DNA from: Pirellulaceae bacterium
Lineage (GTDB): Bacteria > Planctomycetota > Planctomycetia > Pirellulales > Pirellulaceae
Assembly: GCA_034408855.1 (NCBI GenBank)
Contig: JAWXCK010000253.1
Location: 12,730 to 76,729, forward strand
DNA: 64,000 nucleotides
Direction of reading: 5' to 3'
Both the position numbers and the translations under genes were made by a program. Shown piece after piece: positions 4,722-64,000 of the stretch. Numbering within the stretch: position 1 is the first letter of the stretch; every line of letters starts with the position of its first letter. The notes beneath the pieces were generated by a model. It had not been told where the DNA came from. It ran no database searches and worked only from the letters and a program-made list of their open reading frames with translations.

Positions 4722-5258
4722 CTACCAACGCGCTTCCATTTGATCCACGATATGACTTGCCATTCGTTGAATGGCCCGTTGTTGCGATGTAGTGATCGAT
4801 TGGCCGCCTTCAGGCACCAATTCAGAACGTTCGGAAAAATAGAACGCGGTTTCACCCGGTGGCAGGAATCGATTTTCCATCAAAACATTTCCTATCCGGT
4901 CCGTCCAATTGACTTCGGCGGCGAGCGTATTTCGCAATGCTCGAGGCTCGTCGGTTGTCGTCTCGGTAATCACGCGTTTGGTATCAAAATTGATTCGGCA
5001 GACGAGTGTCGAATCGGCAATCGACGCATCGGCAATCTTGTATGGGGTTCGATCCTCGATCTCTTTCTGAACGGCTTCTGTTAGCCGCACACCCAATTCC
5101 GGACGGAACGATTCGGACCGAATAATCGGAACGTGAATGGTTCGAATATCTTGTCGAAAAAGTGTTCGCGATCCAAACCGATAACCTGCGCACCCTGGAA
5201 CGCAAACGATCAATAGCAAAACGGTCATGCATAGATTTGTGAGTGACCTACAAATCAT
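4722..5258 (-). CDS. LptE-like LPS-assembly lipoprotein
   Basis: Signal peptide plus lipobox (LLLIVCVPGC) followed by AGYRFGSRTLF..IRTIHVP..SFRPELG, resembling LptE. The ORF is open to 5393, but the upstream part overlaps the neighbouring gene. Start at ATG 5258 or 5228. Confidence 0.5.
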   Translation of the reverse strand: MICRSLTNLCMTVLLLIVCVPGCAGYRFGSRTLFRQDIRTIHVPIIRSESFRPELGVRLTEAVQKEIEDRTPYKIADASIADSTLVCRINFDTKRVITETTTDEPRALRNTLAAEVNWTDRIGNVLMENRFLPPGETAFYFSERSELVPEGGQSITTSQQRAIQRMASHIVDQMEARW

Positions 5259-6471
5259 TTTCTGCTTTGCTTTCAAGAAGCGGTTTGGTTTTACTGTTCT
5301 CGGGGAATTGGTCGGCGAGCCACTTGAAATATGGCTTGGGTTCGCCAGGAAGCGGTTCGATGGTCGCTTGAGCATCGCGAGCTTTGTCGGCAAAGGGCGT
5401 GTCGCTAAACTCGACGAGAATCTGATCTAAGTAATGCTTCGCAGCGTTGTTCTCACCGCGGTTCATGCGAAAGCGAGCTTGGTCATAAAGTCGCTCGGAT
5501 TTCATGTATCGAACTTCCGCATAGGCACGATTCAAATACTCTCGCTGATCTGCTGCTTCATCCGGAAATTGCTTGAGGATTCGCTTGATAAGTTTTTCAG
5601 CTTCGTCCAATGGCTCGACGCCATATTGGGGCCCTTGGTAGGTTTCCAAGGAAGCTTTAAGTCCCAAGAAATGAGCTTGAAATTGATGCGGGCTGTCGGG
5701 ATAGGTAATCCGAAGATCTTCGAAGGTATCGCGAGCTTCTGGAAACTTCGCTTTGCGGAACGCTTCGGTCGCCAGCTCCATCGTCGCATCATCGGCGAGC
5801 CGACCGGTTGGGTTGTCCAGACGCATTTTCTCTAAGACGTTGACGCCCCGTCGCCCGGTATCATTCCAAGGCCGACGACGATCCGTGAGGTTCAGTTCAT
5901 AAAAGGCATGAGGATCTGCGGCGTCATATTGGAGCCAGTAGAGCGCGATCTCCATCCGACGTTGATCGGCTTTATCGAGCAGCGGCGTCCGCGGGTATTC
6001 CTTGACCAAACGCACGTAGAATTGTTCGGCGTCCGGATAGGCTTCGGCGAAGAAGTAGCTTTCTCCGGCCATGAACAGCGAATCTTGCTCGAGGGCGCTG
6101 CTTTGCCAATTCTTGGCCGCTTCTTTATAATTTTTTCCAGCCGCTTTGAAAAGCTTGACGCGCTCGTCGCCCTCGGCGTTTTTGGCTTGTTCGAACAGCG
6201 CGTCGCCTTCCGAAAATGCTTGACGCGCGGCAACTTTATCGACCGCCTGTCCTCCTAATCCTGGAATCCAGCTTAGCGACGAAGCCAGCTCGGTATTCTT
6301 CTTTTTCTCGGCTCGAACACCTTCTGGACGAACCCAATTTCCCTCGGCATCTTGGTAGCTCTCGACCGATCGTTTGGCTGCATCGTATTCAGGCAATGCG
6401 TTGGAGGACGGTCGAAAGATACTGCAACCTGGTGCCACTACCGACATCATCGCAAGAAACCAAGGCAGCAC
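5248..6471 (-). CDS. TPR-repeat lipoprotein (BamD/YfiO-like)
   Basis: Lipobox VVAPGCS, then long helical repeat regions (SYFFAEAYPDAEQFYVRLVKEYPRTP..). The ORF is open to 6687 but would then overlap recO by 136 nt. Start is uncertain: GTG at 6471 or ATG at 6450. Confidence 0.45.
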   Translation of the reverse strand: MLPWFLAMMSVVAPGCSIFRPSSNALPEYDAAKRSVESYQDAEGNWVRPEGVRAEKKKNTELASSLSWIPGLGGQAVDKVAARQAFSEGDALFEQAKNAEGDERVKLFKAAGKNYKEAAKNWQSSALEQDSLFMAGESYFFAEAYPDAEQFYVRLVKEYPRTPLLDKADQRRMEIALYWLQYDAADPHAFYELNLTDRRRPWNDTGRRGVNVLEKMRLDNPTGRLADDATMELATEAFRKAKFPEARDTFEDLRITYPDSPHQFQAHFLGLKASLETYQGPQYGVEPLDEAEKLIKRILKQFPDEAADQREYLNRAYAEVRYMKSERLYDQARFRMNRGENNAAKHYLDQILVEFSDTPFADKARDAQATIEPLPGEPKPYFKWLADQFPENSKTKPLLESKAENDL

Positions 6472-6551: not shown

Positions 6552-7307
6552 TCAGTGTGCCAGTCCGTCGAGAAACGGCTGCATATCGAACTTGCGGTGC
6601 TGGAGGGCAACAAAAGTACGATTCATCAAATTGCGAATTTCGGCGCGCAATGGACGGGCAATTCTTGTCAAGGGGATCGTGTCCCATGGATTATTCAACA
6701 TCCCTGTCAAGTGTTCTATCGTTGGCTTTTTGAGGCGAATAATACTTCGCTGTCCAGGTATGCATGCTTGGCATAGCACGCCACCCGACTCGATTCCAAA
6801 AGCAACGCTTTCTAAAACCTGTACGCTCTCTCCGCATCCTACACATCCATCCAAACTCGGCATGTGCCCCAATAATCTCAATAAGTTCAACTCGAAACGC
6901 AATAAAACTTCGGCTGGTAGTTCGACAACATCCAAATCTTCGAGTGTCCGTTGGGTTAACGCAAAAAGCTCCGCTATCGGTGAACCGTCCTCGGTCGTCG
7001 CAAGCAATAGTTCAGCGACATAGTAGCCGCAATACAGGTTAAGTAAGTTACGTTGGCCAGATCTAAACCGACGCATTAATTTGGCTTCGGTTAACAGATC
7101 CAGCACATCTCCTGGCTTCGCTAGGAACACTACTGAAGAATGGGCTAGCAGATCAAGAGCAGACTCGAAGGGACTTCGAAGCCGTCGAGCTCCTTTAGCG
7201 ATCGCCGATAGCTTGCCAAAATCGCGAGTCCACAGCGTCACCACCAAAGAGGTCTCGCTCCAAGGAATTGCTCGCAAAACAATCGCTTCGGTTTTTTCGC
7301 TCGACAA
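6552..7307 (-). CDS. recO: DNA repair protein RecO
   Basis: 251 aa. N-terminal OB-fold signature TEAIVLRAIPWSETSLVVTLWTRDFGKLSAIAKGARR and a Cys cluster CVGCG..CQAC. Confidence 0.8.
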   Translation of the reverse strand: MSSEKTEAIVLRAIPWSETSLVVTLWTRDFGKLSAIAKGARRLRSPFESALDLLAHSSVVFLAKPGDVLDLLTEAKLMRRFRSGQRNLLNLYCGYYVAELLLATTEDGSPIAELFALTQRTLEDLDVVELPAEVLLRFELNLLRLLGHMPSLDGCVGCGESVQVLESVAFGIESGGVLCQACIPGQRSIIRLKKPTIEHLTGMLNNPWDTIPLTRIARPLRAEIRNLMNRTFVALQHRKFDMQPFLDGLAH

Positions 7308-7363
7308 AGTCTTTTAAGGTCCTCTCCGGAAAAAATGCCGCACCAAGTGTAATCGGAACCCAT

Positions 7364-7383
7364 GGCTAGCGCCATCGGCTCAC
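7364..7383 (-). repeat. copy of ~25-nt intergenic motif
   Basis: The reverse complement reads gtgagccgatggcgctagcc. Located in an intergenic region. Confidence 0.5.
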
Positions 7384-7416
7384 ATTCGGACATTTCCATC
7401 AGTCTAAGCACGGTAT

Positions 7417-8295
7417 TTAAGATGATTTTGGAAGTGCCGGAGTAGCGCCAGGTTGCGTGCAAACGTAGGCGGCTATTTCGGTTGCAAATCGATGGACCGA
7501 CGCGATCGGTTCCCGATTTAACAATCCAACCACCAACGCAGCCGTAAACGCATCGCCCGCGCCGACCGTATCGATCACTTTCACTTCCGGTGACCGCTGT
7601 TCATCCATGACGTCAATCGAATAAAGCACCGATCCGTTGGCTCCGCGCGTCAAGGCGATCCAATCAAACTCAAATTGCTTGCATAGGGAGTTCAATATAT
7701 CCACATCGGAGGCATTCGGTATCTCTAATAACCGAGCGACAACTGGAAGCTCGTCTTCGTTGAGCTTCAAGACAGACGCCAATTGCATGGAAGCTACGAT
7801 GGTTTCGCGACTGTAGAATTCTTGCCTTAGATTGACGTCGAAGATCCGAAGGCAATCCGGGCGGGTCGAGCCGACAAATCGGAGGACTGTTTGGCAACTC
7901 TGTGGACTACGCTGTGCCAATGTTCCAAAGCATACCGCATCGCACTGTGCGGCCATTTCTGTATAGGCTTCATCCCACCGCAAATGGTCCCAAGCAGTAT
8001 TCGAGGCAAAATGATAGCTGGCTTTACCGAGCTCATCGAGCAGTACATTGACGGTACCTGTAGCTCGGTGACGATCGATGGACAAAAATTCAGTGTGAAC
8101 ATTTCGAGCAACCAACTCTTGGGCGGCTCGCTTTCCTAATTCGTCATCTCCAACAGCACTTACCATGTAAGAATTAGCACCTAGTGCTGACGCATGGCAA
8201 GCAAAGTTAGCGGGAGCACCGCCAAAATGCGACGCGTCGGGATAAACATCCCAAAGGACTTCACCGAGCCCGAGGATGATTGGTATTTTGTTCAT
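7417..8295 (-). CDS. PfkB-family carbohydrate kinase (fructokinase-like)
   Basis: 292 aa with N-terminal GEVLWD and the C-terminal ATP-site motif DTVGAGDAFTAALVVG. Confidence 0.8.
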   Translation of the reverse strand: MNKIPIILGLGEVLWDVYPDASHFGGAPANFACHASALGANSYMVSAVGDDELGKRAAQELVARNVHTEFLSIDRHRATGTVNVLLDELGKASYHFASNTAWDHLRWDEAYTEMAAQCDAVCFGTLAQRSPQSCQTVLRFVGSTRPDCLRIFDVNLRQEFYSRETIVASMQLASVLKLNEDELPVVARLLEIPNASDVDILNSLCKQFEFDWIALTRGANGSVLYSIDVMDEQRSPEVKVIDTVGAGDAFTAALVVGLLNREPIASVHRFATEIAAYVCTQPGATPALPKSS

Positions 8296-55188: not shown

Positions 55189-55893
55189 CTACCAGTGCGA
55201 CCGGTTGAGTTCAGTAACGACGTGCTCGCAGATCGGGAATGTCGGACAGTGGTCGACGTCGGCGGGTCCAAGTCGCTTTCCAGCAATCGCGTTTTCGATT
55301 CCACGCTGATGAGAGAAATCGACTAACTCCCACATCAAAACAGTAGGGGCCTGTACGGTCTTGACCCATGTTTTTAGGAGCTCGATAAAATTATGACGCT
55401 CGATCGAAGCCCCGTTGCTAGCCAAAATAGAGAGTTCGGTAATCAATGCACGAACCATCAGCTCACGATGATTCGGGGATTGCGAGCCGACGTTCTCATA
55501 GCTTAAAAATCTGTCTAGCAAATGGGCAGCAAGTCCCATCAAACCCTCAAAATCAAGATTCTTCGGACAAGGCACAATCACTTTCCCATGGTGACCCATT
55601 CTCGCGACAGCCGATGAGCACGGGCCCACGAGTATGAGCGTAAGCTCATCTGCCTTTGATTGCCCTTCCAACTCTGCTGCCCATTGTTTCGCGTCGGGTT
55701 GGTTTATCTGATTAAATGATGATTTGACCTGACATGCCCTTGTCACGGTCATCCCGTACCATGCGATGTCGATTTTGTCAGACGCATGAGTGGGCTCCAG
55801 CGTAAGCCGGTCCCAATCCAAGCGACGCAGTGATTCGAGCAACGCGATTACGGTTTGAATGAGATAGCCACGGTTTCCGTCTTGCCCACTCAT
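55189..55893 (-). CDS. PD-(D/E)xK nuclease-like protein (Cap4/DUF4297-like N-terminal domain)
   Basis: 234 aa. GYLIQTVIALLESL ... LTLEP ... DKIDIAW ... CQVKSS fits the G(F/Y)xYQ ... E ... D ... QVK pattern of DUF4297-type dsDNA nucleases. Confidence 0.5.
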   Translation of the reverse strand: MSGQDGNRGYLIQTVIALLESLRRLDWDRLTLEPTHASDKIDIAWYGMTVTRACQVKSSFNQINQPDAKQWAAELEGQSKADELTLILVGPCSSAVARMGHHGKVIVPCPKNLDFEGLMGLAAHLLDRFLSYENVGSQSPNHRELMVRALITELSILASNGASIERHNFIELLKTWVKTVQAPTVLMWELVDFSHQRGIENAIAGKRLGPADVDHCPTFPICEHVVTELNRSHW

Positions 55894-56791: not shown

Positions 56792-59269
56792 ATGGCCATC
56801 AAGAAATCCGATCTATACTCGTCCCTCTGGGCCTCGTGCGATGAACTTCGCGGCGGGATGGATGCCAGCCAGTACAAGGACTACGTCCTGTTCATGCTGT
56901 TCATCAAATACATCTCCGACAAGTACGCAGACTACGACGGATTCGAGCCGCCGGTCGTCATCCCGCCAGGAGCAAGCTTCATGGATATGATCGCCCTCAA
57001 GGGAAAGGATGGCATCGGCGACAAAATCAACACGCAAGTCATTCAAAAACTTGTCGATGCGAATGATCGCCTCTCCCGTCACGACTTCCCTGACTTCAAC
57101 GATCCGAACAAGCTCGGCGAGGGGCAGGCGATGGTGGAGCGCCTGACCAACCTCATTGGCATCTTCCAAAAGCCGGAACTGGATTTCTCCCAGAACCGCG
57201 CCGAACACGACGACATTCTCGGCGACGCCTACGAGTATCTGATGCGGCACTTCGCCACCGAGAGCGGCAAGAGCAAGGGGCAATTCTATACCCCGTCCGA
57301 GGTCAGCCGCGTCATGGCCAAGGTCATCGGCATTTCTCCAAAGAATACCGTTGCCTCGACGACCGCCCACGACCCCTTCTGTGGCTCCGGCTCTCTGCTG
57401 CTGAAGGTCGCTGCCGAGGCCGGAAAACACATCACGCTCGAAGGGCAGGAGAAGGACGTGACCACCGCAGGTCTCGCCCGCATGAACATGATCCTGCACG
57501 ACTTCCCCACGGCGAATATCATCTCCGGCAACACTCTAGCCGCCCCCAAGTTCAAGGACGGTGAACAGCTTCGCACTTACGACTACGTCGTCGCCAATCA
57601 ACCATTTTCCGACAAGACCTGGAGCACCGGCCTCATCCCGGAGAACGATCTCTACCAGCGTTTTCAGTGGGGGGTGCCGCCGAAGAAGCAAGGCGACTAC
57701 GCCTATCTCCTGCACATCATCCGCTCGATGAAGAGCACGGGCAAGGCCGCCTGCATTCTCCCGCATGGCGTGCTTTTTCGCGGCGGTGCTGAAGGCGTCA
57801 TCCGCCAGCAGCTTATCCGCTCCGGTTATCTCAAGGCCATCATCGGCCTGCCTGCCAATCTTTTTTACGGCACGGGCATCCCCGCCTGCATCCTAGTGCT
57901 CGACAAGGAAAACGCCAAAGCCCGCAAAGGCATCTTCATGATCGACGCCTCCAAGAGCTTTATCAAGGATGGCAACAAGAATCGTCTCCGCGAGCAGGAC
58001 ATTCACCGCATCGTGGACACCTTCAAAAAACTGTCCGAAGTCCCACGCTACGCGCGCATGGTGCCAGTCGAGGAAATCGCCGACCTGAAGAACGACTTCA
58101 ACCTCAACCTTCCGCGCTACATCGACAGCAGCGAGCCCGAGGATCTCCAAGACATCAACGGTCACCTGCGCGGCGGCATCCCGAAGCGTGACATCGACGG
58201 ACTGGAGCGCTACTGGCAAGTCATTCCAGCGGTGCGGGAGGAGTTGTTCAAGAAGTCCAAGCATGCGGGCTATTTCGATCTAACCACCTCCGATGTCAAG
58301 TTGGCGATCTTCGGTCATTCTGAGTTTACGGCGTTCAAGAGCGGCGTCGACAAGCTGTTTACAAAGTGGAAAAAAACCAACTCACCGCTATTAAAGAGCT
58401 TTGGCAAGGATGATCACCCCAAGGCACTCATCGAGACGCTGTCCGAAGATTTATTAGCCACCTTTGCCAAAGCGCCGCTTCTAGATTACTACGACATCTA
58501 CCAGCACCTCATGGACTACTGGGCGATGACCATGCAGGACGACTGCTACCTTATCGCCGCCTTCGGGTGGCAGGCTGGCGTACTGCCACGCGAAATCATC
58601 CAGGTGAAGAACAAAGAGAACAAACTCGTCTGGCCCGAGCCGCACGACTTCAAGCGCGGCAAGCGCCGATTTAAGTCCGACCTCATCCCCGCCACACTCG
58701 TAATCGACCGCTACTTCGCCGCCGAGTGCGATGCCGTCGCCGCCATCGAGGGCGAACTGGCCGCCATCGAGCAGCAGCTTGATGAAAAGCGCGAGGAGCA
58801 AAACGATGAGGGTGAATTGCTGCTCGCTGAAGTCATCGAAGGCGAAGGCGACAAGCAGAAGATCACCGCCAAGGCCGTGAAGGCCCGAATCAAGGACATC
58901 GGCAAAGACCCCGATTATGCCGAGGAACGCGAGGCGTTGCAGGGATACGCCGCTCTGCTCGACCAGCAAACGGACGCCAAGACCCGGCTTAAGACCGCGC
59001 AGGACGACCTGGAGGCCAAGCTCGACGCCCAATACCCCAAGCTCAGCGAGGACGAGATCCAGACCCTTGTGGTGGACGACAAATGGCTGGCCACCGTCGC
59101 CGTCGCCGTGCAGGGCGAACTCGACCGCGTCTCGCAGACCCTCACCGGCCGCATCCGCGAGTTCGCTCTGCGCTACGCCACCCCGCTGCCACAGCTCACC
59201 GACGAAGTCGCCACGCTCGCCAGCCGCGTTGACGAACACCTCAAAAGGATGGGAGCGGTATGGAAGTGA
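56792..59269 (+). CDS. hsdM: type I restriction-modification system methyltransferase subunit HsdM (long form)
   Basis: 825 aa. HsdM N-domain (SSLWASCDELRGGMDASQYKDYVLFMLFIKYISDK), AdoMet motif DPFCGSGSLLL and catalytic motif VANQPFS. A long acidic coiled-coil C-terminal extension is present. Confidence 0.9.
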   Translation: MAIKKSDLYSSLWASCDELRGGMDASQYKDYVLFMLFIKYISDKYADYDGFEPPVVIPPGASFMDMIALKGKDGIGDKINTQVIQKLVDANDRLSRHDFPDFNDPNKLGEGQAMVERLTNLIGIFQKPELDFSQNRAEHDDILGDAYEYLMRHFATESGKSKGQFYTPSEVSRVMAKVIGISPKNTVASTTAHDPFCGSGSLLLKVAAEAGKHITLEGQEKDVTTAGLARMNMILHDFPTANIISGNTLAAPKFKDGEQLRTYDYVVANQPFSDKTWSTGLIPENDLYQRFQWGVPPKKQGDYAYLLHIIRSMKSTGKAACILPHGVLFRGGAEGVIRQQLIRSGYLKAIIGLPANLFYGTGIPACILVLDKENAKARKGIFMIDASKSFIKDGNKNRLREQDIHRIVDTFKKLSEVPRYARMVPVEEIADLKNDFNLNLPRYIDSSEPEDLQDINGHLRGGIPKRDIDGLERYWQVIPAVREELFKKSKHAGYFDLTTSDVKLAIFGHSEFTAFKSGVDKLFTKWKKTNSPLLKSFGKDDHPKALIETLSEDLLATFAKAPLLDYYDIYQHLMDYWAMTMQDDCYLIAAFGWQAGVLPREIIQVKNKENKLVWPEPHDFKRGKRRFKSDLIPATLVIDRYFAAECDAVAAIEGELAAIEQQLDEKREEQNDEGELLLAEVIEGEGDKQKITAKAVKARIKDIGKDPDYAEEREALQGYAALLDQQTDAKTRLKTAQDDLEAKLDAQYPKLSEDEIQTLVVDDKWLATVAVAVQGELDRVSQTLTGRIREFALRYATPLPQLTDEVATLASRVDEHLKRMGAVWK

Positions 59270-60527
59270 AGCCCGGCTACAAGCAGACGGAGGTGGGCGT
59301 CATCCCGGAGGAGTGGGAGGTTTGCCGCCTGTCGAGCCTCGTCGTGTCTGGTCCAAAGAACGGTTACTCAGGGCGGAGTGGAAAAGATGCCCGAGGAACT
59401 CCGACGCTAGCTCTCACCGCAACAACATCGGGGCGAATGATTCTCGATGAGGAAACACTGAAGCATCTCGAAGAAACGCTCGAACAAAACTCGGACGTTT
59501 TTCTCAAGGCGGGTGATGTGCTCGTTCAACGGTCAAACACGCCCGACCTTGTTGGCACGACGGCGATTTTTGATGGCCCCAGCGGCGTGTTTGCGTACCC
59601 CGACTTAATGATGCGATTGCGCTTCAAGGCACAGGAGACCGCTCGCTGGTTTTGGCGCTATGCGAACAGTTCAAGCGGCAGGCGTTATTTCGTCAGCGTG
59701 GCCGCCGGTTCGACCGGAACTATGCCCAAGATAAGCGGAGACAAGCTCCGCAACATGCCGCTTCCGCTGCCAAAGCCTCCCGAACAACGCGCGATCGCGA
59801 CGGCGTTGAGCGATGTGGATGCGCTGCTGGGCGCACTGGACCGGCTCATCGCCAAGAAGCGCGACCTCAAACGGCCGCCATGCAGCAACTCCTCACCGGC
59901 CAAACCCGCCTCCCCGGCTTCCACGGCGCGTGGGAGGTGACAACACTGGGTGAAGTCGCGACGTTTCTTTCTGGGGGAACGCCTTCACGCAGTAATGATG
60001 AATATTGGAATGGAGAAATTCCCTGGATCAGCGCAATGAGCCTCCGGTGCTTTGACGTATGGCGCTCTGATAGTAACGTCACCGAAGAAGCTGTTGCTTC
60101 GGGTAGCAAAATTGCTCCGATAGATTCCACCCTGCTGCTTGTTCGTGGGAGCGCTTTACACAAAGAGATTCTCTGTGGATTGGTAACGAAACGAGTCTGT
60201 TTCAATCAGGATGTAAAAGCGATGATCCCTTACTCGAACGTGTTCCCTCGATTCTTGACTTGGTTAATACGGGGAAGGGCTGACGATTTTCTTAAATTGG
60301 TTTCTTCAGCCGGGAACACTGCGGGAGTTCTCGATACGAAGCTGTTGAAAGCATTCCAGTTTCTCCTGCCTGAACGGCTCGAACAAATCGCCATCGCCGC
60401 CGTGCTGACGGAGATGGACGCGGAGCTGGCGGTGCTGGAGCACCGGCAGGCCAAGACCCGCGCCCTCAAGCAAGGCATGATGCAGGAACTGTTAACCGGG
60501 AAAACCAGGCTGCCTGTTCAATTATGA
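59260..60527 (+). pseudogene. hsdS: type I R-M specificity subunit HsdS, interrupted by a -1 frameshift in the central conserved region
   Basis: TRD1 plus central region lie in frame 1 (ORF 59260-59940). ...AAMQQLLTGQTRLPGF, TRD2 and the C-terminal conserved region lie in another frame (ORF 59652-60527). The junction ctcaaac-ggccgccatgcag lacks one base relative to the expected LKQAAMQ. The start overlaps the hsdM stop. Confidence 0.8.
60405..60527 (+). repeat. hsdS 3' conserved-region segment, copy 1 (functional end of hsdS)
   Basis: Encodes LTEMDAELAVLEHRQAKTRALKQGMMQELLTGKTRLPVQL*. Confidence 0.85.
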
Positions 60528-61003
60528 AATCAAAACCCCCAGAAAGCGGACTTCTAGAGGCCAAAGGAAAAAACGGCCAAAGGATATTCTACCAGTATTC
60601 CTGTGATCAACAGATTGAAGATTATGATGAAAAGACAATGTGGTGTTTCCAAATAGCCAATGATGATGGAGTCTTTGATTTCCATCTGGTTGACGAAGAC
60701 AGCCTCATGCGTGTCGAAATGATGACACGCAACGACTGCGAACTTTTCAAGGCTCGAGGCATTGCCGAGGCCTTCATTAGGCTAAGCAGCCAAATCTTTA
60801 AGATTGACATCTGTTCTTCTTCCCGAGCAAGACCTCAACCTAGTACCTCGCGAATTGAATCTGTGGCTGAACAGCATTCCGACGGCGCTAGAAAAGTCTG
60901 GCAAGGGCTCGTCGACAGCAAAGAGTCCCACTACGACAATTGTACGCAACGTTTCGTCTATCCATATAAAAATCGCGAAGAAGTTGACGGAGATGGACGC
61001 TGA
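60524..61003 (+). CDS. hypothetical protein (ORF A), possibly GNAT-like
   Basis: 159 aa. The ATG overlaps the hsdS stop (ATGA). The segment FKARGIAEAFIRL...ARKVWQGLV is vaguely GNAT motif-A-like. The 3' end runs 20 nt into hsdS-end copy 2. Confidence 0.45.
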   Translation: MKSKPPESGLLEAKGKNGQRIFYQYSCDQQIEDYDEKTMWCFQIANDDGVFDFHLVDEDSLMRVEMMTRNDCELFKARGIAEAFIRLSSQIFKIDICSSSRARPQPSTSRIESVAEQHSDGARKVWQGLVDSKESHYDNCTQRFVYPYKNREEVDGDGR

Positions 61004-61109
61004 GCTGGCGGTGCTGGAGCAGCGGCTGGTCAAGACCCGCGCCCTTAAGCAAGGCATGAAGCAGGAACTCCTCACCGGCAAAACTCGGCTGGTGCAACGA
61101 AATACATAA
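60984..61109 (+). repeat. hsdS 3' conserved-region segment, copy 2 (remnant)
   Basis: Encodes LTEMDAELAVLEQRLVKTRALKQGMKQELLTGKTRLVQRNT*. By hand alignment 95 of 108 nt are identical to copy 1. It is not in frame with ORF A. Confidence 0.85.
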
Positions 61110-61111
61110 CC

Positions 61112-61744
61112 ATGCCCAAGCTGAATACCACAACTAGTCCGTTGTCTCCTACGATTGAATTGACGCAGTCATACATGCGTAAATGGGGGACGTTGGAAAA
61201 ATACAAGTTCCAGGAGGATTCGCTAAGTTTGCTGTTCCAGGAATTCTGCCCAAATAATTCCGACATCGTCCATGTGTTGCTGAAGGTGAGCGCTTTGAAC
61301 GACTTCTACACCACCAACATTTACGATACGCATTCCGTGGCGAAACATATCATCGCGAGTGATGTCGATAGTCGAATAGCTGACGGCGACTGTTCGTTGG
61401 TGAATCAAATGGCCTCTGTCGTCGTGGGCGGCAAAATCCGTAATTTTTACTCGTTCGCCTCAAAGTATTGCAACCATCACAACCCCGAAGCGTTTCCCAT
61501 CTACGACTCTTACGTCGAGAAGATGCTGCTGCATTTTAGGGACGCGCACAATTTCGCTCAATTCAGCAAGGCCGAGTTAAAGCAATACAGCCGGTTCGTG
61601 GCGATTATCCACTCTTTTAGGCAACACTACTCGCTTGAGCAATTTTCTCTTCGGCAGATTGCCATCTATCTCTGGCTGGCTGGAAAAGATTCATTTGGAA
61701 GATTCCTCCAGAAGCAAACGAAAGAAATAAAGGATCGACCTTGA
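61112..61744 (+). CDS. hypothetical protein (ORF B)
   Basis: 210 aa. The ATG lies 2 nt after the stop of hsdS-end copy 2. Probably helical (LLKVSALNDFYTTNIYDTHSVAKHI...SFASKYCNHHNPEAFPIYDSYV). Family not recognised. Confidence 0.5.
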   Translation: MPKLNTTTSPLSPTIELTQSYMRKWGTLEKYKFQEDSLSLLFQEFCPNNSDIVHVLLKVSALNDFYTTNIYDTHSVAKHIIASDVDSRIADGDCSLVNQMASVVVGGKIRNFYSFASKYCNHHNPEAFPIYDSYVEKMLLHFRDAHNFAQFSKAELKQYSRFVAIIHSFRQHYSLEQFSLRQIAIYLWLAGKDSFGRFLQKQTKEIKDRP

Positions 61745-61749
61745 ACACG

Positions 61750-61863
61750 CTGACAGATATCGTCGTGGAGCTGGCGGTGCTGGAGCAGAGGCAGACCAAG
61801 ACCAGCACGCTGAAGCAGCGCATGATGCGAGAACTTTTAGCCGGAAGGACGCGATTGGTATGA
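61750..61863 (+). repeat. hsdS 3' conserved-region segment, copy 3 (more diverged remnant)
   Basis: Encodes LTDIVVELAVLEQRQTKTSTLKQRMMRELLAGRTRLV*. By hand alignment about 83 of 108 nt are identical to copy 1. Its stop overlaps the next ATG (ATGA at 61860-61863). Confidence 0.8.
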
Positions 61864-62699
61864 CGGATAATAATAAGGTCGAACCTCCATCGATAGCGAC
61901 GTTCTACGTCGATGAAGCCGGAGATGGCATTCTCTTTGGGCCAATGGGACGCAACCGGTTGGATGATCCTGACGCACCAAAATTCTTCATGCTTGGCATG
62001 GTTCGTTGTACGGTCGACGCCGAAGCGGAGGCGGCGCTGAGTGCGCTTCGGGCGTCATTGCTCGCCAATCCATTGTATGCGACGATTCATACTATGCGAC
62101 CATCCGTCCAGAAAACCGCTCGTTCGTTTCATGCCAAGGATGATCACGCTGAAGTGCGCGCCAAGGTCTTTGAAGCGCTGCTGGGGCTAGACTTCAAGTT
62201 CTTTGCGGTGATCAAGGATATGCGTTCCGTGTTACGTTATGTTGAAGGGCGTAATCAAATGCACGCGAACTATCGATATCATCCAAACGAGCTTTATGAC
62301 CTTACGGTAAGGATGCTTTTCAAGAATCAACTTCACAAGCACGACCAATATGAAATTACGTTTGCTCGTCGCGGTGCGTCCGATCGCACTAAAGCCCTCG
62401 TTACACAACTCGATTTAGCGAGGCAGGCTTTCATAGCCCAGCATGGGAGAGCTTCGAATTCGTCTCTGGGCATTCATCCAGCGTATCCATGGCAACGCCC
62501 CTGTTTGCAAATAGCTGATTATTGCCTATGGGCATTGCAGAGATGCTACGAACGGCACGAGTGTCGCTTCTTGCAAGCCATTTGGAACAAAGTGTCGTTC
62601 ATTCACGATGTCGACGATCCGAGAAAAACCTACGGTTCGTTTCTAACGCGGAATTCGCCTCCGCCAGACCCAGAGCAAATAAAAAACCGGTGGATATAG
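61860..62699 (+). CDS. DUF3800-like protein
   Basis: 279 aa. N-terminal FYVDEAGDG and C-terminal CLQIADYCLWALQR fit the DUF3800 pattern (DExG ... QxAD). Confidence 0.55.
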   Translation: MTDNNKVEPPSIATFYVDEAGDGILFGPMGRNRLDDPDAPKFFMLGMVRCTVDAEAEAALSALRASLLANPLYATIHTMRPSVQKTARSFHAKDDHAEVRAKVFEALLGLDFKFFAVIKDMRSVLRYVEGRNQMHANYRYHPNELYDLTVRMLFKNQLHKHDQYEITFARRGASDRTKALVTQLDLARQAFIAQHGRASNSSLGIHPAYPWQRPCLQIADYCLWALQRCYERHECRFLQAIWNKVSFIHDVDDPRKTYGSFLTRNSPPPDPEQIKNRWI

Positions 62700-62946: not shown

Positions 62947-63753
62947 ATGCTCGGACTGGTTCCCTATTTGACCGCAAGCGGCGTCAAATTTGACCCCGGC
63001 AACACCAAAATCCACCTCGCTTGTTGGAATGGGATCGAGCACCCACTCGATGTTTTCTACGCTGGAGGATGGCAGGCATGGCAAGATGGTCAGACCAAAC
63101 GAAACTTTGAATGTTCAAATGTTTTAAGCTTGATTGATCTCGGGCGGAGCCACTGGCTGTTTGTCGGCGTTTATGAAGTTCTCAGATGTCAACCGAGCCC
63201 GAAGGGAAATGGACATTTTTTGTACACCACAAAACTGCTTGCAAATCAATCGGAACTCATCGGACGGGTGATTGTCCACCATCAGCGGACGCGGCAGTCG
63301 TATGTTTGGTTTAAACCCGCAATGGAACTGCCGATTGTCGAGATCCGTCGCGAAAAGATGACGATCGCTGATTTTCCTGGCTACAACGCCGTTGTGATCA
63401 ACCACAGTAGTTTGCAGATTATTACACGGCAAAAAATCGCCTCGTGGCACGCTGCCTTGGCCAACATCAAAGGTGTTTATCTTATTGTCGATACCACGAC
63501 CGGAAAGCCTTACGTCGGCAAGGCGTCAGGATCGGTCGGAGTCTGGCAGCGCTGGTGTGCCTATGCCGACAACGGTCACGGTGGCAATGTAGAGTTGAAG
63601 AACGTTTTAAAGGAGAAAGGTTCTGAACACATGCGTAACTTCCAGTATTCCATTTTGGAGATTGCGGATACGCACGCGTCGAACGAAGATATTTTGGAAC
63701 GTGAGTCGTACTGGATGAACGTATTGCGATCGAGGGAGTTTGGATTGAATTGA
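62947..63753 (+). CDS. GIY-YIG nuclease domain protein with unknown N-terminal domain
   Basis: 268 aa. The C-terminal KGVYLIVDTTTGKPYVGKASGSVGVWQRWCAY...GGNVEL...FQYSILEI...ERESYWMNVLRSREFGLN carries the GIY ... YVG ... R ... E ... N elements. Confidence 0.7.
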   Translation: MLGLVPYLTASGVKFDPGNTKIHLACWNGIEHPLDVFYAGGWQAWQDGQTKRNFECSNVLSLIDLGRSHWLFVGVYEVLRCQPSPKGNGHFLYTTKLLANQSELIGRVIVHHQRTRQSYVWFKPAMELPIVEIRREKMTIADFPGYNAVVINHSSLQIITRQKIASWHAALANIKGVYLIVDTTTGKPYVGKASGSVGVWQRWCAYADNGHGGNVELKNVLKEKGSEHMRNFQYSILEIADTHASNEDILERESYWMNVLRSREFGLN

Positions 63754-63821: not shown

Positions 63822-64000
63822 ATGCCTGAACAACCCCGCTCTGAGCGCAAAACACAGAACCGCGTGATTGCTCTGTTCACTGACAAATCGCGTCCAGATT
63901 GCCTCGGCTATCGGCACCTCGGCGATTGGAGCAAGCGCGAGATCAATCGTTGCGTCGAAGTAGAAATACTTCGAGCGAATTTAAAGCAGCGGGGCTATTC
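63822..64000 (+). CDS. hsdR: type I restriction enzyme R subunit HsdR, N-terminal fragment (continues beyond window)
   Basis: My own translation: [59 protein letters not shown]. This resembles the conserved HsdR N-terminus. It is co-directional with hsdMS. Confidence 0.6.

Follow-up and report, generated by a model that had tools for sequence, protein, structure and literature searches.

Type I restriction-modification (R-M) operons can carry additional genes, of which PrrC in EcoprrI and the rlo genes of Campylobacter are examples. A survey based on 'guilt-by-embedding' lists 17,432 non-redundant genes that lie inside BREX, DISARM or Type I R-M systems, PrrC occurring almost exclusively within the Type I R-M ones (Payne et al., bioRxiv 10.1101/2024.01.29.577857). 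TgvAB, on VPI-2 of V. cholerae, is an experimentally shown embedded case (PMC11411939). A rearrangement of hsdS itself is reported by Furuta et al. (PMC3077401): in H. pylori, specific amino-acid sequence moves between positions within the gene (DoMo). In this study, a Type I operon at the end of a 64,000-nt stretch of Pirellulaceae DNA (contig JAWXCK010000253.1; the whole stretch is called the window) was analysed, and in particular two open reading frames, ORF A and ORF B, that lie between its hsdS and its probable hsdR gene.

The operon is read in the order hsdM, hsdS, ORF A, a relic of the hsdS tail, ORF B, a further relic, a DUF3800 gene, UzuA and hsdR. A 3.3-kb block with four genes separates hsdS from the probable hsdR (Table 1). 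As in other Type I operons with embedded genes, the extra genes are co-oriented between hsdS and hsdR, their junctions are tight or overlapping and the cargo differs between related operons. Unlike embedded defence genes, ORF A and ORF B gave no PADLOC match, and the stack of the window keeps hsdS-tail relics between its cargo. Such relics are mentioned neither by Payne et al., whose text contains neither 'hsdS' nor 'recombination', nor in the TgvAB paper. The arrangement is already known and ORF A and ORF B are new as members of it: two uncharacterised families join the list of genes riding inside Type I restriction operons.

A previous sequence-only reading of the window had pointed out that each ORF follows an hsdS-type stop codon and precedes an hsdS-end remnant, where a target-recognition domain (TRD) of HsdS would be expected. 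It had offered two explanations, captured cargo or TRD-replacing modules of a novel class. The topology was confirmed by the copies of a 107-nt direct repeat: the final 107 nt of hsdS (60406-60512) recur at 60985-61091 and at 61751-61857. As to the explanations, ORF A and ORF B are very probably two unrelated, functional passenger genes that are stacked with the DUF3800 gene and UzuA and have no role in target recognition. Captured cargo is the description that suits them: they are conserved and selected as stand-alone genes, their predicted folds are not those of TRDs, they have relatives outside hsdS contexts and the cargo of the slot varies between genomes.

To judge from their substitution patterns, both ORFs are genuine genes under purifying selection. 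The ratio of nonsynonymous to synonymous substitution rates (dN/dS) was 0.22-0.26 when ORF A was compared with the homologues of L001 and L002, which gave 0.10 against each other (L numbers designate loci outside the window). For ORF B, compared with its homologues in L005, L007 and L008, the proportion of nonsynonymous differences (pN) was 0.21-0.27 and that of synonymous differences (pS) 0.77-0.87. Methylase_S (PF01420) was matched by both halves of hsdS (ORF 59260-59940, 2.5e-08; ORF 59652-60527, 1.8e-09) and by neither ORF A nor ORF B at E <= 0.1. The LGEVxxxxxGxTP-type pattern, which reads LGEVATFLSGGTPS in the true TRD2, is lacking in both ORFs, as had been stated. BLASTP of the two ORFs against TRD2 remained at noise level (E > 1), and no HsdS chain was present among the 50 Foldseek PDB matches listed for each ORF model. 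The reading frame differs between ORF A (60524) and relic 2 (60804-61109), and between ORF B (61112) and relic 3 (61741). Because the relics are out of frame with the ORFs preceding them, the ORFs are not joined to the conserved hsdS helix as a TRD would be.

The slot between hsdS and hsdR is a hot spot for cargo, and in other genomes it is occupied by different genes of defence type, at times together with hsdS-tail relics. Of 401 genomes of the phylum, 26 matched the hsdS tail in a DNA search, and seven loci of this operon family, all from other genomes within the phylum, were examined. Cargo of 1.5-2.9 kb occupied the slot in five of the seven; in one locus hsdS abuts hsdR, and another locus is decayed. 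Schlafen/AlbA_2-HATPase_c_4 regulators, a YhcG/DUF1016 nuclease, a different DUF3800 protein, a DUF4062...Fic-like_C protein and an NB-ARC NTPase were found as cargo. In L096, the gene at 5059-5640, between a short hsdS-tail relic and hsdR, is presumably a REP-associated tyrosine transposase (RAYT; REP, repetitive extragenic palindromic), to judge by its sequence motifs; Pfam gave no match. The pattern of the window recurs in L095, where hsdS, an AlbA_2 gene, an hsdS-tail relic, a DUF1016 gene and hsdR follow one another. Eighty metagenome loci listed for a 23-mer of the tail were scanned with a strict tail-peptide motif, and a tail copy without a TRD ahead was detected in two of them, L155 and L205. 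The order in L205 is hsdS, AlbA_2 gene, relic, DUF4062 gene. The unit is 'hsdS tail plus next gene'.

Table 1. Features of the Type I R-M operon and its cargo (positions in the window)
Feature	Position	Strand	Evidence
hsdM, Type I methyltransferase, 825 aa	56792-59269	+	Pfam N6_Mtase 2.2e-96, HsdM_N 4.7e-14
hsdS: TRD1, central conserved region, TRD2, C-terminal conserved region (CR2)	59260-60527	+	Methylase_S
hsdS tail (CR2), reference copy of the 107-nt direct repeat; codes LTEMDAELAVLEHRQAKTRALKQGMMQELLTGKTRLPVQL, then stop	60406-60527	+	repeat family, tblastn
ORF A, 159 aa, predicted GNAT-fold protein, rare hsdS-linked family	60524-61003	+	homologues, AlphaFold2 (AF2), Foldseek
hsdS-tail relic 2 (…LTEMDAELAVLEQRLVKTRALKQGMKQELLTGKTRLVQRNT, then stop), 89% identical to hsdS tail	60985-61109	+	repeat search, tblastn
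ORF B, 210 aa, Pfam PF27257 (HI_0787_N), distantly DUF6308-like, predicted nearly all-helical	61112-61744	+	
hsdS-tail relic 3 (LTDIVVELAVLEQRQTKTSTLKQRMMRELLAGRTRLV, then stop), 77% identical to hsdS tail	61751-61863	+	repeat search, tblastn
ORF C, DUF3800 protein	61860-62699	+	Pfam DUF3800 1.7e-06; PADLOC DUF3800_VII 1.5e-10
UzuA (Uzume) GIY-YIG nuclease, final cargo gene ahead of hsdR	62947-63753	+	PADLOC UzuA 4.8e-63
Probable hsdR 5' end, first 59 codons, leaves window	63822-64000	+	position; open-ended ORF

The genes of the stack are closely packed. The ATG of ORF A overlaps the hsdS stop codon as ATGA, an overlap that suggests translational coupling. ORF B starts 2 nt past the in-frame TAA (61107-61109) of relic 2, which has no TRD ahead of it. 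A 40-codon ORF with a TTG start (61741-61863) spans relic 3 and is joined to its neighbours by overlaps at both ends, of its TTG with the stop codon of ORF B and of its own stop with the DUF3800 start codon, again as ATGA. This ORF could act as a coupling bridge or could even encode a free HsdS C-terminal helix peptide. Promoter- and terminator-like sites inside the stack were no commoner than in shuffled sequence. The composition is mosaic, with a guanine + cytosine content of 55-66% in hsdM/hsdS vs 45-54% in the insert (60.45-63.9 kb). The last ORF was assigned to hsdR because of its position, since hsdR comes after the cargo in related operons. Its beginning also looks like a typical HsdR N-terminus; Pfam gave no match.

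The relics suggest how Type I operons collect genes, and they would constitute a sequence-level record of the order in which the cargo was stacked. Each of them may be the last remnant of an older hsdS, one that was formerly the immediate upstream neighbour of the gene behind the relic. Gene positions elsewhere fit this origin: the DUF4062 gene lies directly behind an intact hsdS in L097 and behind a relic in L205, and ORF B and a DUF3800 gene each lie directly behind an intact hsdS in other loci. New 'hsdS plus cargo' segments would have been added from the upstream side by recombination, in which homology would have been provided on the right by the conserved 3' end of hsdS and on the left by hsdM or the conserved regions of hsdS. 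The older hsdS would have lost its TRDs and kept its final ~110 nt. Alternatively, one crossover within the tail may have integrated a circle of cargo and a single tail; direct repeats of the tail would result in both cases. Tail identities within the window, L002 and L085 were 81-84% for pairs in the same locus, no closer than for pairs between loci. When relic 2 was compared with the tails preceding ORF B elsewhere, the ~110-nt tails were too conserved across loci for a donor to be assigned.

Two described processes can be set beside this stack. In DoMo, TRDs are reportedly shuffled through the conserved repeats that flank them. In the window, too, copies of a conserved hsdS region flank the segments; what lies between these copies, however, is not TRDs but entire foreign genes that have start and stop codons of their own, and the copies downstream of the functional hsdS are non-coding relics. 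The stack resembles integron cassettes in being a directional series of promoter-less single-gene units split by a recurring element, and it differs from them in that this element is the coding 3' end of hsdS. No integrase was found next to the stack and no recombinase gene within it, and no attC-like imperfect palindromes, hairpins, REP-like elements or inverted repeats were found at the cassette junctions of the window.

The tail copies might also be working sites of a recombinase-free, integron-like cassette system in which circles of cargo and tail pop out and re-insert by homology, although we consider this improbable. The relics after ORF A, after ORF B, in L002 and in L085 all start within ~5 nt of one point (…GCTGACGGAGATGG…). 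The gene behind ORF A and its relic differs between loci, being ORF B in the window and a HATPase_c_3 gene in L085, and the L095 relic is nearest to its own hsdS tail (81%, and <=70% to any other tail compared). These points are countered by the relics of L095 and L205, which start respectively 27 nt earlier and ~50 nt later than the common point, by the decay of several relics and by the finding of a TRD-less tail copy in only the two metagenome loci cited above. RAYT/REP elements may be one route to duplication of the hsdS tail. In L155, region 3-708 consists of 3.6 tandem copies of a 196-nt unit made of the hsdS 3' end and a perfect REP-like palindrome (GTAGAGACGCAAAATTTTGCGTCTCTAC). Directly downstream of these repeats come a probable RAYT gene (812-1372), recognised by its sequence, and hsdR. 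The palindrome seems to be inserted in frame inside hsdR of L155 as well. A Y1_Tnp gene is present upstream of hsdS on the contig of protein P0126.

ORF A belongs to a family that occurs almost only directly behind hsdS. A search of 5.8 billion proteins gave two close homologues (57% and 55% identity), and the family has 17 cluster representatives among 1.84 billion; the earlier description of the ORFs as orphans roughly holds for this one. All relatives with at least 38% identity for which upstream DNA was available lie just downstream of hsdS (L001, L002, L085/L086 and L087/L088). The start of the homologue overlaps the hsdS stop in the last three, which with the window makes four of five loci. 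In L001 (2-1324), hsdS runs on in frame after …LLTGRIRLV into an extra C-terminal domain of ~200 aa, and the ORF A homologue follows; this extension resembles a captured cargo gene that has been joined to the C-terminus of HsdS. An hsdS-tail relic directly follows ORF A in three of the five hsdS-linked loci (window, L002 and L085/L086). Because of an in-frame stop in L002 and a frameshift in L085, the relics of these two loci are decaying and not translated as such. Distant members of the family (<=33% identity) are located away from hsdS; neighbours there include an integrase together with an AAA_22 gene and, in another case, a PAPS-reductase gene. The contig of L252 is too short to place its ORF A relative against hsdS. 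The family alignment terminates at ~60970, at ...RFxYP, the native end of ORF A; the final ~11 codons of the ORF (KNREEVDGDGR) are the hsdS tail of relic 2 read in another frame.

The AF2 model of ORF A (predicted local distance difference test, pLDDT, 88.1; predicted template modelling score, pTM, 0.82) is made of a five-stranded meander followed by helix-strand-helix-strand elements, and the GNAT core fold beta4-alpha3-beta5-alpha4 is present in it. The best Foldseek match in the PDB was the acetyl-CoA-binding C-terminal domain of M. tuberculosis ICL2 (E 1.3e-3, probability 1.0, template modelling score, TM, 0.42-0.46). AcrVA5 (E 0.019), a tandem GNAT, GCN5 and RimI were also matched. A GNAT hint noticed previously in the sequence was therefore borne out at the fold level, and ORF A is predicted to be a small acetyltransferase-like protein of GNAT-like fold. 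The beta4-alpha3 motif region of the model aligns with the GNAT superfamily, whereas in its N-terminal half the usual alpha1-alpha2 is missing and a beta-meander is found. This predicted assignment is structural and its sequence-level support is thin. At the position of GNAT motif A, ORF A reads K-A-R-G-I-A and the family consensus is x-A-K-G-I-P, the last position being mostly Pro. NCBIfam, PHROGs and PADLOC scans with ORF A were empty, and sequence searches of the PDB with the ORF A and ORF B family profiles yielded nothing meaningful.

A rare family with a GNAT-type fold, found almost only behind hsdS, is a concrete candidate for a restriction-coupled accessory function. ORF A could be a PrrC-like guard, held inactive by the R-M complex and freed when a phage blocks restriction; the freed protein would then acetylate a cellular target, for example charged tRNA, and abort the infection. 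We regard this as a tentative and rather unlikely proposal. The GNAT toxins of toxin-antitoxin modules, which acetylate charged tRNA, have the size of ORF A, and its predicted fold would suit such an activity. The position is also suitable, since PrrC is a precedent for it and the family is adjacent to hsdS in all five loci defined above. The proposal is weakened by the distant members that are not beside hsdS, by the atypical motif A and by the lack of a PADLOC match. Moreover, unlike in the TacAT and AtaRT modules, no small antitoxin gene is adjacent to ORF A, which is flanked in the window by hsdS upstream and the non-coding relic downstream, and no small partner ORF is conserved next to its homologues in L001, L002, L085 and L087. 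PrrC itself is different: neither ORF A nor ORF B has an ABC-ATPase-like or anticodon nuclease match in Pfam or PADLOC, and their sizes (159 and 210 aa) and folds differ from those of this anticodon nuclease.

ORF B, described together with ORF A as an orphan, is not one: 2,503 homologues were found at E <= 0.01. PF27257.1 (family name HI_0787_N) is the precomputed annotation of the identical protein P0004 and of 120 of 120 homologues among the matches listed; this annotation was used for the membership of ORF B, the model being absent from the local Pfam copy. DUF6308 (PF19827) matched the C-terminal half of 30 of 33 family members under its cut-off, which suggests a distant relationship, and scans of ORF B with Pfam, NCBIfam, PHROGs and PADLOC yielded only this sub-threshold signal. 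Membership of PF27257 and likeness to DUF6308 give no function, because both families are uncharacterised; a literature search for HI_0787, DUF6308 and PF27257 found no paper. A scan of one genome per GTDB species confirmed 112 relatives, in Verrucomicrobiota, Pseudomonadota, Planctomycetota, Bacillota, Bacteroidota and other phyla. Many relatives are longer (290-395 aa) and have N- or C-terminal extras (L015 at 6587-7594, L039, L042, L057, L060 and L084). That of L015 carries DUF7669 at its N-terminus, and the extensions of the other long relatives mostly gave no Pfam match.

Only the closest relatives of ORF B sit in Type I operons. L004/L005 has the order hsdM, hsdS, ORF B homologue, hsdR with overlapping junctions. 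In L008 the homologue comes directly after hsdS with an overlapping stop and start, and the contig stops inside it. Among the co-directional neighbours of the family at 80 loci, HsdS was found upstream in 2 of 65 cases and HsdR downstream in 1 of 57. The other neighbours ranged from GmrSD, AbiJ and Mrr through to housekeeping enzymes, few of them matched PADLOC models and no constant partner gene was present across the 80 loci. Members of this family are usually lone genes in variable genome regions. L003 and L004, from one metagenome sample, appear as two versions of the same integrase-linked island: hsdM-hsdS-ORF B-hsdR is intact in L004, and in L003 hsdM, hsdS and hsdR are fragmented and the ORF B homologue is whole.

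The AF2 model of ORF B (pLDDT 92.7, pTM 0.87) contains thirteen helices and one hairpin, in agreement with the all-helical fold guessed previously. The family alignment shows many invariant polar residues (K58, N63, Y66, T68, K118, Y119, C120, H122, H123 and D132). This enzyme-like set of Lys, Asp, His, Cys and Asn suggests that ORF B may be an enzyme. No significant structural match was found for the model in the PDB (Foldseek) or in BFVD; the family is large and its fold is confidently predicted.

The best plausible Foldseek matches of ORF B were M. jannaschii Ogg (E 0.22, probability 0.77), the DUF2419 queuine salvage enzyme, a human MutY homologue, MagIII and MutY. ORF B may be imagined as a divergent glycosylase of the HhH-GPD type, with modified phage DNA or modified nucleosides as its substrate, that would complement restriction as embedded Type IV systems do, an idea to which we give little credence. 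All five matches belong to the HhH-GPD superfamily, Lys118 is invariant, and in the model Asp132 caps the helix after a Pro-rich loop. This arrangement recalls the Lys/Asp pair of HhH enzymes. TgvAB provides a precedent for a modification-dependent system inside a Type I operon. The matches, however, are not significant (E 0.22-3.2 and TM 0.29-0.35 for the glycosylase-type ones), and the BFVD search was empty. Comparison by hhalign with Nth and MutY alignments built from the relatives' genomes gave a probability of 0.2%, no Pfam HhH-GPD signal was obtained in 33 family members at E <= 10 and the neighbours of the family are mostly non-defence genes. 'Glycosylase-like' is therefore kept as a weak lead from the model, and not as a classification.

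A still bolder combination can be formulated, in which the hsdS 3' end would be a portable adaptor of recombinase-free cassettes, serving as homology arm when single-gene modules enter, leave or are re-sorted among Type I operons and as coupling signal for the gene that follows, and the ORF A family would be a GNAT effector adapted to the position behind hsdS and linked in function to the restriction complex as a PrrC-like guard. It must be held slightly more doubtful than the cassette system and the guard taken singly.

The preferred account is that of passenger genes stacked by recombination, ORF A having a GNAT-like fold. By their position, both genes may provide accessory functions against phages or mobile genetic elements, expressed with the operon. 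Several observations weigh against parts of this account. PADLOC models match neither ORF A nor ORF B, so that position is the sole argument for a defence role. Most ORF B relatives have housekeeping or unrelated neighbours. ORF A has no Pfam match at E <= 0.1, GNAT models included, and its family consensus AKGIP departs from the GNAT pyrophosphate-binding motif Q/RxxGxG/A. When ORF A was compared by hhalign with 15 GNATs from the relatives' genomes, 21 columns around motif A were aligned with P = 0.008 and a probability of 5% (P 0.47-0.58 in the controls). The start point shared by the relics of the window, L002 and L085 is unexplained by the recombination model. Finally, hsdS is frameshifted, and because of this the operon may not be fully functional.

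The two remaining explanations are far weaker. That the ORFs are degenerate TRDs or new TRD-replacing modules, plugging into the HsdS scaffold through the flanking conserved helices, is suggested by topology only, each ORF lying between two copies of the C-terminal conserved region and having a length close to that of a TRD, and it is highly implausible given their own start and stop codons, the stops and frameshifts in the relics of other loci and the overwhelming location of ORF B relatives outside R-M loci. The TRD-replacing module proposed by the sequence-only reading is refuted by the missing Methylase_S match, the unrelated folds, the own stops and the out-of-frame relics, and profile, BLASTP and Foldseek comparisons lent no support from structure or homology to degenerate TRDs. 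Equally hard to uphold is the view that the ORFs are open by chance, or are dead pseudogenes, amid the debris of recombination, for which the surrounding gene fragments, the frameshifted hsdS and the very few relatives of ORF A can be quoted. It is contradicted by dN/dS values far under 1, by full-length homologues with 38-74% identity, by the confidence of both AF2 models and by the stop/start overlap with hsdS, which is kept across independent loci. The attraction of a new kind of specificity module is thereby removed. What is left of most interest is the tight linkage of the ORF A family to hsdS and the common start of several relics.

The frameshift of hsdS is a 1-nt change near 59866-59882, in the central conserved region, that splits the gene into two reading frames: the sequence reads …KKRDLKRPPCSN… where …KKRDLKQAAMQQLLTG… is expected. 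It may be a sequencing error, the mark of a pseudogene or a sign of two half-subunits. An in-frame ATG at 59880 could begin a half-size HsdS. An 11-nt inverted repeat with a 2-nt gap (CTGGCGGTGCT / AGCACCGGCAG) is present in the hsdS tail at 60426-60449 and is weaker in both relics; it is probably due to chance. Adjoining the operon, a 234-aa protein encoded on the opposite strand (55189-55893, -) matches only the first ~100 of 462 positions of the PADLOC 'Effector endonuclease' model (5.7e-18); it is a truncated effector or else a nuclease domain that stands alone.

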